A DNA stretch of 64,000 bases from a virus (Duplodnaviria > Heunggongvirae > Uroviricota > Caudoviricetes): positions 1 through 64,000 of the IMG/VR virus record IMGVR_UViG_2690316068_000001; one strand, written 5' to 3'. Below are positions 34,258 to 38,707 of the stretch, one piece after another. The first letter of the stretch is position 1, and the number at the start of each line of letters is the position of its first letter. A program made the translations under genes and the position numbers. The notes below the pieces were generated by a model that saw only the letters and a list, made by a program, of their open reading frames with translations, was not told the DNA's origin and searched no databases.

Positions 34258-36518
34258 AAGAGCTGTGCTATGGATCTGTTTGCAGTGGAATTGAAGCCGC
34301 GAGTATTGCCTGGGAACCGTTGGGTATGCGTCCGGCGTGGTTTGCTGAAATCGAGCCTTTTCCATCTGCCGTTCTTGCGCACCGCTGGCCCCATGTCGCC
34401 AACCTTGGCGACATGACAAAACTTGCCAAAAAAGTCCTGGCTGGGGAAATCGAATCCCCTGATGTGCTCGTCGGGGGAACACCTTGTCAGGCATTCAGTA
34501 TCGCGGGCTTACGTGGTGGGCTTGATGATGAACGCGGCGCGCTAACTTTGAAGTATGTGGAGCTTGCAAATGCAATTGACGACAAACGGTCTGAGTCCTT
34601 CCTCAAACCGACAGTTATCGTCTGGGAAAATGTCCCAGGAGTCCTGTCATCGGCAGATAACGCCTTCGGATGTTTCCTTGCCGGATTGGCTGGAGAAGAT
34701 GCGCCATTTGAACCAGGTGATCGACCTGAATCAGGAAAAAGTAACGCGTTCTGGCGGTGGGATGGCAAAACCGGTTGCCATGCTCCAAAGTGGCCGCAGT
34801 GTGGTTGTATTTATGGACCGCAGCGAAAGGTGGCCTGGAGAATCCTTGATGCCCAATACTTCGGAGTGGCACAACGACGCCGACGCGTGTTTGTTGTCGC
34901 AAGTGCTCGAACAGACCTCGATCCCGCAACGGTACTTTTTGAGTTCGAAGGCGTGCGCCGGGATATTGCGCCGAGCCGAAAAAAGAAGGAAATCGCTTCC
35001 GCCATTATTGCAAATGGCGCTGCAATCAGTGGCGAAAGCCTAAATCCATGCCTACACGCTGACATTCCACCCGGTATGAAATCGACGAAAGCCGTAAACG
35101 CTTTCAGGATGGCAGCATTTGGGGAATATATTGACGATGAAACCGCATCGACAGTAAAGGCAAGAGATTTTAAAGATGCCACTGACCTTGCCGTTTTTAG
35201 CAGCACAGGAGCAGGTTTTTGGTCAGAAGGGCATGGTACATTGCGGGCACGTGAGCAAGAAAGCCATGAGCATCTTGTTACATTGGCTTTTCCTGAGCGT
35301 ATGAGCGGTACACAACATGCTGCAACTAAGAATACTTCACCATCTCTAATGGCTAAAAATCCAACAGCTGTTTGCTATGAAGTAAGAAACGCAGAAGTAG
35401 CTGTCCGCCGTCTTACCCCTGTCGAATGTGAAAGGCTGCAAGGTTTTCCTGATGGGCATACGTTGATCCCGACGGAAAAGCGTAAAAAAGTTAATTCAGA
35501 TGAACTGGCATATCTTCGCAATCACTATCCAGATTTAAGCGAAGAAGAGGCCGCGATGCTTGCAGCTGACGGACCGCGTTACAAAGCGATCGGCAATAGT
35601 ATGGCAATACCAGTAATGCGCTGGATTGGCGATCGGATTACTAAGGCCGTATGTCGGCAGAAAGAAGGAAGTAAAACAAAAGAGCGAAAAGTTAAACCAG
35701 CGGCAGAATTCGAACGGTCCATATTCAAATGGGCTGGTGGAAAATTTGGTGTTCTGGAACAAATCTTTCGCTATTTGCCAGAAGGGAAGCGCCTGATTGA
35801 ACCTTTCGTTGGTGGCGGAGCTGTCTTCATGAATGCCGGATACCAGGAAAATCTGCTAAATGATGTGAATGCTGACCTGATTAACTTTTACAAGACTCTG
35901 CAACGCGAGGCGCATTCACTTATCACTCTGGCACATCGTTTCTTCCAGGACTACAACACACAGGAAGGATACCTGGCAGTACGGAATGCGTTTAACAAAC
36001 AAGTCTATGATGATTTACATCGCGCAGCGGCGTTTTTGTTCCTGAACCGACATTGTTTTAACGGATTGACGCGTTACAACCAGGCTGGTGAGTTCAATGT
36101 CGGTTATGGGAAGTATAAAACTCCGTATTTCCCATTACAGGAGATGGAAGCCTTCCTCGGTGCGGAAGGGCGGTCTGAGTTTGTATGCGGTGATTTTGCA
36201 GCGGTGATTGAAGCTGCCGGAGAAGGAGATGTCATCTTTTGCGATCCGCCGTATGAACCGCTTCCAAATACAGAGGGATTCACGAACTATTCCGGTCATG
36301 ACTTTAAGTTTGAAGAGCAAAAACGCCTGGTGTCTCTGTTGACGGATGCTCATCGTCGAGGTGCAAAGGTTCTCATTACTAACAGTGGCGCGCCAAATAT
36401 CAGAGAGCTTTATCATGACAGTGGCTTCAGAGTGGAACCTCTTTTTGCCAGACGTTCTGTGTCTTGTAAGGGGGACACTCGAGGTGTAGCTCATGACGTT
36501 TTAGGTATATTGCTCTAA
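34254..36518 (+). CDS. dmt: Bifunctional DNA methyltransferase: N-terminal C5-cytosine MTase fused to C-terminal Dam-like N6-adenine MTase
   Basis: 754 aa; PCQ ([11 protein letters not shown]) and ENV motifs N-terminally; FVGGGAVF and DPPY ([10 protein letters not shown]) motifs C-terminally. Confidence 0.8.
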
Positions 36519-36525
36519 TAAATTT
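36509..36525 (+). promoter_or_regulatory. C1-operator-like 17-mer (attgctctaataaattt) overlapping dmt stop
   Basis: Perfect consensus match; upstream of tRNA/tci/ban cluster. Confidence 0.6.
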
Positions 36526-36699
36526 ATTAGTGTAATATCGCCTCAATGAATCGTGATTTATAGAGCGATTTAGCTGTTAGCCGCGACAGGCGCGGCGGTA
36601 AGCATGGCTGGGCCTAGTCCTCCCAGACAAACCACCGAGTTGCCAGGTTGACCATGCGCCTAAGTGGCAACTCCGAAGTGCGTTACGAGCTTCCAGTTT

Positions 36700-36727
36700 G
36701 CCCATCTTCGGGTGGGCGTTTTTTTTC
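36700..36727 (+). terminator. Hairpin plus T8 run (terminator/attenuator-like)
   Basis: gcccatcttcgggtgggc followed by gtttttttt. Confidence 0.45.
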
Positions 36728-36908
36728 AGGGTTTTCGTCATGGTTAGCGACTTTGCGGCGGTTTAGAAACTGACCATTAAAGTAAATGCAAACGATGATC
36801 TGATGATGGTAGCGGCCTAAGAAGCCAGACGCCACGGGGTATGAGTCGTCCCCCGTCAAAAAATCGACCGCAGAGTGTCCCCGTCTGTGTATTAGGGAAC
36901 GGGGAGAC

Positions 36909-36997
36909 ACAACAGGTAAGGGCGCTGGTGTGATTAACCAGATGAACGAGAAGGGGCCATCTGTTGGTCAGCGTCCTTTCCTGTTGCGTTTTCTTTT
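36909..36997 (+). repeat. Hairpin family unit 1 (ACAACAGGTAAGGG… stem, 3-prime arm …CCTTTCCTGTTGCG, then T-rich run)
   Basis: Shares 5-prime arm sequence with units at 37348, 37563, 38046. Confidence 0.5.
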
Positions 36998-37191
36998 CAG
37001 CGTAACAGCGGTGCTTAACAGCACTTTGGGTACAGTTCCACGAATTTACGGGTATATCCCGTCATGCTGAAAGCGCTAATCACGCTGGAAGCCAGGGTTA
37101 TGCATCCCCTGTTACCGAATTGCAGCCAGGGCGCGGTGCGCCGAAAAGCATACGGAGGTGGAAGCCCTCGCCGGAGACGTACCCGGCAAGT

Positions 37192-37267
37192 GATGGTGTA
37201 GCTCAGCGGTTAGAGCGGTTGACTGTTAATCAACGGGTCGATGGTTCAAATCCATCCACCATCGCCA
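37192..37267 (+). tRNA. tRNA-Asn (anticodon GTT)
   Basis: Cloverleaf: acceptor gatggtg/caccatc, anticodon loop ctGTTaa at 37225-37227, T-loop ggttcaaatcc, encoded CCA. Confidence 0.85.
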
Positions 37268-37269
37268 AT

Positions 37270-37345
37270 GCCGGTTTAGCTCAGTTGGTAGAGCGCCTGC
37301 CTTGTAAGCAGGATGTCAGCGGTTCGAGTCCGTTAATCGGCACCA
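37270..37345 (+). tRNA. tRNA-Thr (anticodon TGT)
   Basis: gccggtttagctcagttggtagagc…cttGTaa (anticodon 37313-37315)…ggttcgagtcc…cacca. Confidence 0.85.
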
Positions 37346-37347
37346 GC

Positions 37348-37454
37348 ACAACAGGTAAGGGTATTTTGCGACGTCGGAGATCGCCGAGCTTGGCAGAGGG
37401 TTCGAATCCCTACGAAGTACCCTTACCGTTGTGATGAATGCGCAGGCTGATGCG
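37348..37454 (+). repeat. Hairpin family unit 2; loop contains a tRNA T-arm-like GGTTCGAATCC
   Basis: 5-prime arm acaacaggtaagggta pairs with tacccttaccgttgtg; conserved 3-prime tail GATGAATGCGCAGGCTGATG. Confidence 0.5.
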
Positions 37455-37562
37455 CGAAAGACATTGCAGCTATTGCGGAAAAGAGCTGTTCGGCGGGGCA
37501 ATTAAACGCCCGTGAGAGTCTGAAATAACCGCAAGCCGGAGATCAGCACCGGTCATCACAAC

Positions 37563-37642
37563 ACAACAGGTAAGGGCATTCTCCCTTATGGGGCTTGGCT
37601 TAAATGCATCGAGTGCTCTTACCGTTGTGATGAAGTGCAGCT
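37563..37642 (+). repeat. Hairpin family unit 3
   Basis: acaacaggtaagggcattctc … gagtgctcttaccgttgtgatgaagtgcag. Confidence 0.5.
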
Positions 37643-37768
37643 CTTTGAAGCAACCAGAAGATAAGCATCTGGCTTCACAACATAAACCGCAGGAACGACC
37701 AATAAACGGTAGTCCGTATGGAGAACACCCCGTTGAGGAAGAGGCCTGGCCGGAACCGTAACCGGCAC

Positions 37769-37884
37769 TACAACGTTGAGAACACTGGCGTAACGGGGTC
37801 ATATCCCAATCTACGAATAAATGTTGCGTTGCAGCGTGACAACCAGTGTTCTCAACATTGTGGTGAATGCACAGGCTGATGTGC
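37769..37884 (+). repeat. Hairpin family unit 4 (different stem sequence, same flanks: covariation)
   Basis: tacaacgttgagaacactgg … ccagtgttctcaacattgtggtgaatgcacaggctgatg. Confidence 0.5.
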
Positions 37885-38045
37885 CGCAACTACAGTAGTG
37901 CGCGCTTTGCGGGGCTTGCTACAACCCTGTGTCGGAGTTCAGCACCGACCATCACAGTTTGATTCTCTGGCATGAGCATAACGCTGAAATAAGTCCAGTC
38001 TGGTGCGGCCCGATCACCCGCCGTTAGCTCCACGAAACGGAGCAC

Positions 38046-38140
38046 GTAACAGGTAAGAGCATTCTCCTGTAACGGGTTCATATCCCAATCTACAGGTCCA
38101 CCAGGAATGCTCTTTCCGTTGCGGTGAATGCGGCTAAGCG
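38046..38140 (+). repeat. Hairpin family unit 5
   Basis: gtaacaggtaagagcattctcc … ggaatgctctttccgttgcggtgaatgcgg; loop shares gggtcatatcccaatctac with unit 4. Confidence 0.5.
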
Positions 38141-38230
38141 CACGCGGAACAGTTAAAACAATCCTCCTTAATGGTTAAACATTCCGACGTTAATTGTTAA
38201 CTGGTTAACGTCACCGGGAGGCACTCGGCA

Positions 38231-38247
38231 CCGCAATCTAATAAATA
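38231..38247 (+). promoter_or_regulatory. Degenerate operator-like motif (ccgcaatctaataaata)
   Basis: Partial match (CTAATAAAT core) 25 bp upstream of tciA. Confidence 0.3.
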
Positions 38248-38272
38248 TGTCACTTTTATTGAGGGATAACCA

Positions 38273-38707
38273 ATGTTCGGTAAATTGTTCGGCAAGAAAG
38301 TCGCTTCTGCAAAAGTAGAGCTGAAAAAAGTTGAGAATCGCGATCTGATGGAGGCCATCATCGGTGGCTGTTTGTTGGTGTCTGCCGCTGATGGTGAAAT
38401 CGAAAAAGAAGAAACAGCGAAACTTGATCAGCTTGTCCGCTCTAATCCGCGTCTTAGTCATTTTGGTAACGAAATTACTGCAACAATTACCCGCTTTACC
38501 GAGCAACTGGAAGCTGGCTTCCGTGTTGGTCGCATGAATATCCTTCGCGAAATTGAAGATATCAAAAACGATCCAAAAGAAGCGGAAGAAGTATTCGTTA
38601 ACATGCTGACAATTGCAGAAGCGGACGGTGAAATCGAGCCAGCAGAACACAAAGTACTGGAAGAAGTAGGCCGTCGTTTAGGTCTTCGTGTGGAAGATTA
38701 TCTGTAA
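38273..38707 (+). CDS. tciA: TerB-like protein (tellurite-resistance TerB family)
   Basis: 144 aa; two DGExE-containing helices (AADGEIEKEE…AEADGEIEPAEHKVLEE) typical of TerB. Confidence 0.7.
   Translation: MFGKLFGKKVASAKVELKKVENRDLMEAIIGGCLLVSAADGEIEKEETAKLDQLVRSNPRLSHFGNEITATITRFTEQLEAGFRVGRMNILREIEDIKNDPKEAEEVFVNMLTIAEADGEIEPAEHKVLEEVGRRLGLRVEDYL

Follow-up and report, generated by a model that had tools for sequence, protein, structure and literature searches.

Covarying RNA hairpins with partial mimics of tRNA arms in the predicted ban-operon leader of a P1-like phage-plasmid

RNase III stalks flank rRNAs, DicF is processed from the dicB operon transcript by RNase III together with RNase E, and RNase III also acts in the T4 tRNA cluster. 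Several RNAs that are not tRNAs nevertheless show one or two tRNA arms, among them YrlA (RF02553), which joins a long terminal stem to a T-arm, the tRNA-like domain of tmRNA and the thrS operator, which mimics the anticodon arm of tRNA-Thr and binds a synthetase. Structured non-coding RNAs of unknown function, namely T4 species 1 and 2, GOLLD and ROOL, lie beside phage tRNA genes. Domain V of the poliovirus internal ribosome entry site (IRES) belongs with the RNAs that display a tRNA arm, since it mimics the anticodon arm of tRNA-Gly and binds glycyl-tRNA synthetase (PMC3384309), and STnc100 and PasD are related, prophage-borne, Hfq-associated small RNAs (preprint 10.64898/2026.05.13.724894; PMC8550237). 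The stretch analyzed here comprises 64,000 nt (IMG/VR record IMGVR_UViG_2690316068_000001, positions 1 to 64,000; hereafter the window) and comes from a P1-like phage-plasmid, positions 36500-38300 being 97-99.9% identical to P1 and its relatives by sequence comparison. According to the list of open reading frames (ORFs), an array of five long hairpins, H1 to H5, is bounded by dmt, which ends at 36518, and tciA, which starts at 38273. The best explanation of these hairpins is that they are structured RNA modules, on the + strand, of the ~1.7-kb untranslated leader of the C1-controlled ban operon. With moderate confidence, we favor the reading that they are processed leader RNAs on the ban transcript, in which the stems would serve as processing stalks and the tips as mimics of tRNA arms.

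RNA folding showed that each of the five hairpins forms one long imperfect stem around an interior of 40-54 nt, and all were found at, or within a few bases of, the places given in an initial annotation of the sequence. Their free energies lay between -34.5 and -55.6 kcal/mol and their z-scores between -3.76 and -5.76, and none of 200 dinucleotide shuffles folded as well as any of the five. The 5′ arm ACACAACAGGTAAGGGC is common to H1, H2, H3 and H5 (82-100% identity over 17 nt). The arms of H4 differ in sequence yet pair, being 91% complementary over 23 nt, so that the different but still paired stem noted earlier for this unit was confirmed. When the 5′ and 3′ arms of ten hairpins from this and other phages were swapped in a ten-by-ten test, the mean energy was -30.3 kcal/mol for cognate arms and -17.0 kcal/mol (sd 5.7) for non-cognate ones, and the stem frame ACAACAGGTAAG(A/G)G...C(C/T)CTTACCGTTGT was found to hold at least six different interiors in the window and its relatives. 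We conclude that the stem sequence is free to change so long as pairing stays, and that the five hairpins are real, selected RNA structures. The stems are predicted to span 17-23 bp with one mismatch or bulge, and as modeled they would offer the roughly two turns of mostly Watson-Crick double-stranded RNA by which an RNase III stalk is recognized.

Two short sequences in the arms deserve mention. The 3′ arms of H3 (37617-37625) and H5 (38108-38116) contain UGCUCUUAC or UGCUCUUUC, which we take to resemble boxA of lambda nutR and of rRNA operons; a role as a Nus-factor site was rejected, because the sequence is base-paired in the stem and is not universal in the family. The 5′ arms of H1-H3 contain CACAACA (36908-36914, 37347-37353 and 37562-37568), the GcvB-seed target consensus noted for the prophage anti-small RNA AgvB (PMC4104026), a match that sits inside the stem and may be coincidental.

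H4 and H5 have a 25-nt interior motif in common, and a scan of viral contigs for it recovered more than 119 loci, in which four stem subtypes surround the same motif. Since MAFFT set the stems out of register when all subtypes were aligned, a single-subtype model was used for structural alignment. R1, the covariance model in question, rests on 12 hairpins that all belong to one subtype and all come from phages other than the P1-like ones. R1 found H4 (37768-37863, 42.4 bits, E 1.5e-8) and H5 (38045-38123, 39.7 bits, E 8.8e-8), both over model positions 1-93, and it also detected all the other stem subtypes; over the 64-kb window it gave no further match, H1-H3 remaining unmatched at E up to 10. 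No Rfam 15 family matched the hairpins, nor did permissive thresholds reveal one in the window, the P1 relatives or the lambdoid loci, and a full-text literature search did not find the motif. Thus, H4 and H5 are members of a widespread phage RNA family that is absent from Rfam 15, whereas H1 and H3 have the same stem frame but lie outside the R1 family, and the earlier proposal that the five units form a single family has to be given up.

The stems of this family covary. In alignments whose figures are generous, because they were fitted to the model structure and many of their rows are close relatives, 95.1% of the cells paired among 46 distinct homologues, compared to 72.4% after shuffling and at most 46.6% when the partners were slid; 27 of the 33 pairs, including 17 of the 18 in the outer stem, showed changes on both sides. 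The same treatment of species-representative genomes (22 distinct sequences) gave 95.0% paired cells and compensation at 23 of 33 pairs. Both the arm-swap test and a plain reading of the subtypes agree with this result, and the covarying stems that had initially been taken as the mark of a selected RNA structure were thereby upheld.

In contrast to the drifting stems, the tip hardly varies. Hairpins of the H4/H5 type carry, inside an inner helix of 4-7 bp, the succession AC, GGG, a 7-nt loop N-U-C-A-U-A-(A/U), CCC and AAUC, which gives the consensus CGGG(C/U/G)UCAUA(A/U)CCC with GGG/CCC set in a fixed internal loop of AC opposite AAUC. In both sets, of 46 and 22 distinct sequences, the three G-C pairs of the tip were invariant but for a single G-U cell. 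The tip reads GGG-GUCAUAU-CCC in H4 and GGG-UUCAUAU-CCC in H5, while most chromosomal prophage copies read CGGGCUCAUAACCC, with GGG-CUCAUAA-CCC. These 14 nt are identical to positions 28-41 of the E. coli initiator tRNA-fMet; the tRNA sequence used for this comparison is 100% identical to a tRNA-Met gene in 5426 of 5426 E. coli genomes, with a median of four copies per genome. Bacterial initiator tRNAs are characterized by three G-C pairs beside a CAU anticodon loop. H4 and H5 both have the three G-C pairs, the 7-nt loop, U33, CAU and A37 of such an anticodon arm, and across the family there is variation at positions 32 and 38 but none at U33, CAU or A37, a pattern that appears to fit an anticodon loop, and a T-loop less well. 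Judged by its sequence, the H4/H5 tip is a copy, albeit a partial one, of the anticodon stem-loop of initiator tRNA-fMet. Pairing of the anticodon-like loop with the AUGAA/GUGAA tail as a pseudoknot was discarded on grounds of geometry, as the two would lie at opposite ends of a rod of ~26 bp.

The tip of H2 is of another kind. As the initial annotation had seen, it is a canonical T-arm, AGGGTTCGAATCCCT at 37397-37411, with GGTTCGAATCC as loop and stem; a 5-bp stem with the loop UUCGAAU was found in H2 and was absent from H1, H3, H4 and H5. Its combination of a long terminal stem with a T-arm is like that of YrlA, for which model RF02553 (gathering score 69) gave a single, spurious hit in the window (25.6 bits, 37212-37329) across the two real tRNAs. 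T-arm-like tips also occur in unrelated copies, two of them in contig L049 (8250-8400; CUGGUUCGAUUCCAG and GUCCGUUCGAUUCGGAC) and one in contig L010 (AGAGUUCGACUCUCU). Nothing tRNA-like was detected in the interiors of H1, H3 or the hairpin of Klebsiella phage IME207. The earlier suggestion that some units are tRNA-like therefore holds for H2, and extends to the anticodon-arm look-alike of H4 and H5 that had been missed, but not to H1 and H3.

The four stem subtypes occur in lambdoid, N15-like and P1-like phages and in Enterobacterales prophages, and the motif is present in about a dozen Enterobacterales genera. The yfdP-type hairpin was found at 3321 places in 2492 of 5426 complete E. coli genomes (46%), at 95-100% identity, and carriers of the common subtype include O157:H7 and CFT073. 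The L1 subtype had no match among the complete E. coli genomes. The CPS-53 yfdP leader of E. coli K-12 no longer carries the hairpin, which makes K-12 RNase III and transcript maps uninformative on this point. One copy, in a contig labelled Chryseobacterium (L144 3334-3445), is near-identical to those of Mixta and Erwinia and probably reflects assembly contamination or recent transfer.

This wide persistence bears on the idea that the hairpins are relics of tRNA genes, that is, decaying pseudo-tRNAs with no present function, which we regard as very improbable. The T-arm in H2 and other copies, the anticodon-arm sequence in H4 and H5, the tRNA genes adjacent in P1-like phages, and the tRNA-Ser and tRNA-Tyr cassettes gained or lost in relatives are what such an origin would leave behind. 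Yet no cloverleaf could be drawn: ARAGORN called three true tRNAs and no hairpin in the 64-kb window, and the Rfam tRNA model RF00005 gave no match to the five hairpins at E up to 10, so that degenerate tRNA genes, one of the roles proposed at the outset, can be set aside. Neither compensation at 27 of 33 pairs together with an invariant tip across genera, nor maintenance of near-identical copies in almost half of the E. coli genomes, is expected of decaying sequences.

Strand and context of the copies were consistent with an RNA element. G-U cells exceeded A-C cells in both sequence sets, 104 to 37 and 42 to 22. A T-run of at least 5 T lay within 30 nt upstream of 32 of the 35 copies and, where it was read, formed the tail of a same-strand intrinsic terminator, whose stem differs between loci. 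Nearly every hairpin with the initiator-like tip began no more than a few bases from this T-run (L049 8560-8611, L003 2650-2696 and 30 other loci), into which the predicted hairpin stem is able to extend. Downstream, an ORF of at least 60 aa started within 400 nt on the same strand, again in 32 of 35 copies. Two settings recurred: hairpins stood either past the late terminator downstream of a Q-like gene or, in PY54, between methylase and holin; or else ahead of the early-left operon, 18-107 nt upstream of its YfdP-like or RdgC-like first gene. Two known phage RNAs were considered and rejected as counterparts: the early and late regions of HK022, source of the put RNAs, contain no hairpin or module motifs, and svsR, a small RNA that prophages carry near cI, sits within the 3′ end of that gene and is unrelated.

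Placement just ahead of an early gene raises the question of a cis-acting regulator in a 5′ untranslated region, whose tip would recruit methionyl-tRNA synthetase (MetRS), the 30S subunit or another factor and so set translation or stability of the downstream gene. The thrS operator is a precedent for an anticodon-arm mimic that binds a synthetase. The poliovirus IRES is another (PMC3384309), and the chromosomal prophage hairpins do precede the first early-left ORF at short distance. However, H4 is followed by another non-coding module, H5 lies 150 nt from tciA with module M_D in between, and in the late operon the next ORF is 160-360 nt away or missing. We consider this explanation quite unlikely.

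The neighborhood of tRNA genes is likewise not general. A scan of 48 related loci found 40 without any tRNA gene, and a tRNA gene stands beside the hairpin only in P1-like phages, IME207 and contigs L065 and L114; hence tRNA processing cannot be the general role, and the interleaving with tRNA genes described initially is mainly a trait of P1-like phages. Where tRNA genes are present, the hairpin may abut their 3′ CCA, as it does with tRNA-Thr in the window, with a tRNA in CMS-2020a and with tRNA-Arg in L065 and L114.

The coordinates of the array and its surroundings are listed in Table 1. By transfer of the P1 annotation, transcription of the whole array would begin at the C1-controlled ban promoters and operator. 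A terminator scan detected a sole strong intrinsic terminator in the interval, at 36700-36726, where the 'dicF-like' segment ends. The first ~190 nt of the ban transcript (36540-36726) finish in this terminator (GCCCATCTTCGGGTGGGC followed by T8) and could form a discrete small RNA; no match of this piece to DicF was obtained in Rfam at E up to 10. Genes beyond the terminator, including ban, require read-through. The scans revealed no terminator-like site on the + strand from 36727 to tciA and no consensus promoter on that strand past the ban promoters. Since no further promoter of this kind lies downstream, the ~1.7 kb before tciA are best read as an untranslated leader of the ban operon. The interval does contain two tRNA genes, for Asn (GUU) and Thr (UGU), as initially described. 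Further downstream, between tRNA-Ile/Met (CAU) and ban, positions 39056-39175 agree at most aligned positions with L003 2249-2365, the very start of the early-left leader in lambdoid phage mEp460, and constitute another non-coding module shared by P1-like and lambdoid phages.

Table 1. Features of the predicted ban-operon leader and its borders, in window coordinates
Feature	Coordinates	Strand	Description and basis
C1 operator (Op72/Oban) inverted repeat	36507..36538	+	Overlaps the ban-operon promoters; matches annotated P1ban/P2ban and Obanab, NC_005856
'dicF-like' leader segment	36633..36726	+	P1 annotation carried over at 99% identity; terminator scan
H1	36907..36989	+	Common stem frame; nothing tRNA-like inside; without module tail; z -4.74; inverted repeat
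tRNA-Asn (GUU)	37192..37267	+	ARAGORN; Rfam tRNA 74.5 bits; between H1 and H2
tRNA-Thr (UGU)	37270..37345	+	ARAGORN; Rfam tRNA 72.9 bits; between H1 and H2; CCA end abuts H2
H2	37346..37433	+	Common stem frame; T-arm interior on a short acceptor-like helix; z -5.35; inverted repeat
M_A	37431..37559	+	Closed by GUGAUGA/UCAUCAC; hairpins GCGCAGGCUGAUGCGC (first) and CCGGAGAUCAGCACCGG (last); fold; tail of H2
H3	37561..37629	+	Common stem frame; interior not tRNA-like; z -3.76
M_B	37627..37766	+	Last hairpin GCCGGAACCGUAACCGGC; same hairpin precedes hairpins in PY54 and other contigs
H4	37766..37865	+	Different covarying stem, three-way junction; tip ACGGGGUCAUAUCCCAAUCUA at 37793-37813; z -5.76
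M_C	37860..37955	+	Closing helix GUGGUGA/CCAUCAC; first and last hairpin loops complementary, GCUGA/UCAGC
H5	38045..38123	+	Common stem frame; tip ACGGGUUCAUAUCCCAAUCUA at 38072-38092; z -4.55
M_D	38121..38234	+	STnc100-like core without terminator, directly upstream of tciA; closing helix GCGGUG...CACCGC
tciA (TerB-like)	38273..38707	+	ORF list and P1/relative annotation; first protein gene after the non-coding array

The reading of this interval as non-coding has to contend with the P1 reference record, which carries two minus-strand ORFs, plp and upl, across H2-H4, with equivalents at window positions 37470-38081. Were these real protein genes, the hairpins would be incidental, and the corresponding ORFs of 139 aa and 63 aa are in fact open in the window and in near-identical P1 relatives. 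The Pfam search gave nothing significant, however, its sole hit scoring 13.3 bits (E 0.078) against a curated cut-off of 27. In P1, plp overlaps tRNA-Thr; the ends of both ORFs shift with every module insertion or deletion; and CMS-2020a has no such ORFs although its H4 and M_C are 93% conserved. The same modules are found singly in lambdoid and T1-like phages without plp or upl, and the substitutions preserve pairing. We therefore hold the protein-gene interpretation to be extremely improbable, and plp and upl are probably annotation artifacts rather than genes. Given the two annotated frames, the initial statement that the region has no convincing ORF is a matter of judgment, but one with which we agree.

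Modules of ~95-140 nt, M_A to M_D, alternate with the hairpins, each shut by a closing helix, and in the folds this helix covaries between module copies (GUGAUGA/UCAUCAC versus GUGGUGA/UCACCAC). In M_A and M_C the first hairpin reads GC(G/A)CAGGCUGAUG(C/U)GC and the last CCGGAGAUCAGCACCGG or UCGGAGUUCAGCACCGA. With a closing helix (G)GUGAAU...CACC and terminal hairpins, the window modules are like STnc100 and PasD (RF02076). M_D (38120-38235) matched RF02076 over model positions 31-147 at 42 bits (E 4.7e-7), below the gathering score of 47, and four other P1-like phages gave matches of 38-43 bits; M_A, M_B, M_C and the hairpins had no STnc100 hit in Rfam. Unlike genuine STnc100 and Pas small RNAs, which end in a terminator, the P1 modules score below threshold and lack the 3′ intrinsic terminator, none being present between 36727 and tciA, and the hairpins fall outside that family. 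Conversely, genuine STnc100, which lies downstream of stx2B, is not preceded by such a hairpin: in phage PA2 the stretch between stx2B and STnc100 is without one, and the hairpin was accordingly rejected as a part of genuine STnc100. The conserved tail that had been assigned to each hairpin unit in fact belongs to the STnc100-like modules. Because it consists of a module's 5′ strand and first hairpin, H2 and H4 are followed by the whole tail and H3 and H5 by part of it, and H1 has none.

In a module, the first and the last hairpin have complementary loops that change together, reading GCUGAU/AUCAGC in the window, ACUGA/UCAGU in P7 and, as a G-U intermediate, GCUGA/UCAGU in D6 (37440-37455 with 37535-37551; L004 2469-2484 with 2575-2592; L006 2150-2165 with 2256-2273), which suggests a loop-loop contact within the module. 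A regular-expression search for modules returned mostly false positives. M_A is 96-98.6% identical in lambdoid phages and in IME207 (for example, L003 2505-2633 and L131 2510-2640); it lies in the early-left leader, downstream of the repressor gene, in the former and adjoins two tRNA genes in the latter. Identity of this order across P1-like phages, lambdoid phages and IME207 implies recent horizontal spread of a purely non-coding module, and the P1 ban-operon leader thus has non-coding modules in common with lambdoid and even T1-like phages.

From these comparisons the array region appears to be a mosaic jointed at the hairpins, in that differences between P1-like phages start and stop in hairpin arms or in the tip motif. 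P1 is without M_A and H3, the joint falling in the 3′ arms, while P7 is without the H2 interior and M_A, with the joint in the 5′ arms. In D6 and P7, another module, a tRNA-Ser and a different hairpin replace M_C and H5, and a tRNA-Ser(UGA) cassette stands at a module border in D6, P7 and CMS-2020a. Ro157c2YLVW has an extra tRNA-Tyr, together with a small ORF (42-46 aa, with a Shine-Dalgarno site) exactly at the 5′ edge of H4. The coordinates of these cassette-like insertions at module borders include L005 2644-2806, L004 2607-2693 and L005 2272-2358.

Such a pattern invites the thought that the hairpins act as DNA, being recombination joints, either attC-like boundaries or hot spots of homologous recombination, that shuffle non-coding cassettes. 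Besides the edges of insertions and deletions among P1, P7, D6, SJ46, Ro157c2YLVW and the window, which fall inside arms or tip motif, the likeness to integron attC sites extends to imperfect hairpins with an AAC...GTT base (arms ...ACAAC / GTTGT...), a bulged, extra-helical base and a variable center. Against this, the arms (G/A)CACAAC...GTTGTG(A/G) break the attC consensus RYYYAAC/GTTRRRY at the third position on both sides, the L1 subtype (ACATTCG...CGAATGT) has no AAC/GTT, and the 'cassettes' are non-coding RNAs. Orientation is fixed as well, since all copies examined run in the direction of transcription, most of them behind a terminator; the excess of G-U over A-C pairs and a tip that mimics an RNA point the same way, and recombination at repeats is expected under any function. 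We know of no integrase linked to these hairpins, and consider a DNA-level role very unlikely.

The reading that we favor, processed leader RNAs with stalks and mimics, would operate as follows. Once the repressor is lost, the leader would be transcribed; its long stems would provide double-stranded stalks for processing, RNase III being the most plausible enzyme, and cleavage of the stalks would cut the leader into stable RNAs, namely the tRNAs, the STnc100-like modules and the hairpin tips. The freed tips may then attach to, and could perhaps titrate out, a protein or a site on the ribosome that recognizes the initiator anticodon arm or the T-arm, candidate partners being VapC-type toxins that cleave tRNA-fMet, MetRS and the 30S P site. 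Cleavage, accumulation of the products and the binding partner are steps that we infer. Like the known RNase III stalks of rRNA operons, T7 and lambda leaders, DicF/dicB and the T4 tRNA cluster, the hairpins are long imperfect stems that bracket RNA in a polycistronic, largely untranslated transcript. The phage context agrees with that of DicF too, and the P1 record marks a 'dicF-like region' in the same leader. They differ from those stalks in that the bracketed RNA has a length of only 30-55 nt and shows the strongest conservation of any part.

A simpler account would keep the stalks and drop the mimics, so that the hairpins are processing punctuation only, RNase III or other cleavage and stability signals with no function in trans; we judge this rather unlikely. 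The long near-perfect stems, the position of hairpins exactly at module junctions and against tRNA 3′ CCA ends, the location between an upstream terminator and the first gene, and interiors that are variable and swappable are all in keeping with it. What it leaves unexplained is the invariant tip, for a cleavage signal needs no stretch of 21-23 nt that stays constant across about a dozen genera and four subtypes in which the stems themselves drift; in addition, most family members have no tRNA nearby.

The opposite emphasis would make the tip RNAs of temperate enterobacterial phages, with an exact copy of the initiator anticodon arm or, in sister elements, a T-arm held out on a long stalk, decoys or hijackers, which either neutralize toxins or nucleases that cut tRNA-fMet, such as enteric VapC, or capture MetRS or the 30S P site to the benefit of phage gene expression. 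In P1-like phages the locus, beside replacement tRNAs for PARIS targets, would be an RNA-only counter-defence island. Enteric VapC toxins cut tRNA-fMet within the anticodon stem-loop (PMC7180214), and the tRNAs for Asn (GUU) and Thr (UGU) both rank among the three principal targets of AriB, the PARIS nuclease (PMC12409363). Both facts speak for the favored reading too, and as the neighboring P1 tRNAs are PARIS targets, a counter-defence setting is plausible. We rate this more far-reaching proposal as unlikely. In the window, the phage tRNA-Thr reads U36-A-A-G39-C-A where the host has UAAUC|A (PMC12409363), a change at position 39, which is also the site of one resistance mutation in T5 tRNA-Lys (PMC12409363), whereas the phage tRNA-Asn reads UAAUCA.

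Several observations weigh against the combination of stalks and tRNA-arm mimics that we prefer. H1 and H3, having no tRNA-like interior, would be left unaccounted for if mimicry were the sole role. The P1 loops, UUCAUAU and GUCAUAU, match CUCAUAA less exactly than the chromosomal ones do; only three of the five anticodon-stem pairs are kept, the next two positions being C-A and A-A mismatches; and the match to tRNA-fMet was spotted post hoc. In Ro157c2YLVW, H5 is missing its GGGUUCAUAUCCC core. SJ46-like phage-plasmids join the 5′ half of H4 onto the 3′ half of H5 via the shared tip, which destroys the stem, and since this SJ46-type deletion occurs in at least six contigs (L007 2072-2149, which is SJ46, and also L021, L045 and L053), intact H4 and H5 are dispensable for maintenance of the phage-plasmid.

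Mimicry of tRNA by other RNAs is known, and our search of the literature on phage anticodon mimics returned only precedents from eukaryotic viruses and synthetase operators. What appears to be new here is a copy of the initiator anticodon arm in phage operon leaders: to our knowledge, no described element places such a mimic on a long covarying rod, or in a phage operon leader. T4 species 1 and 2, GOLLD and ROOL are likewise structured non-coding RNAs beside phage tRNA genes; GOLLD and ROOL gave no Rfam hits here, and the present elements, unlike them, are short and modular and mostly do not lie near tRNAs. The covariation is strong, and the conserved tip narrows the binding partners to a small set. 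If the tips do act as decoys, they would add an RNA-only strategy to phage counter-defence and would help to explain why phages keep long untranslated leaders beside their tRNA genes.

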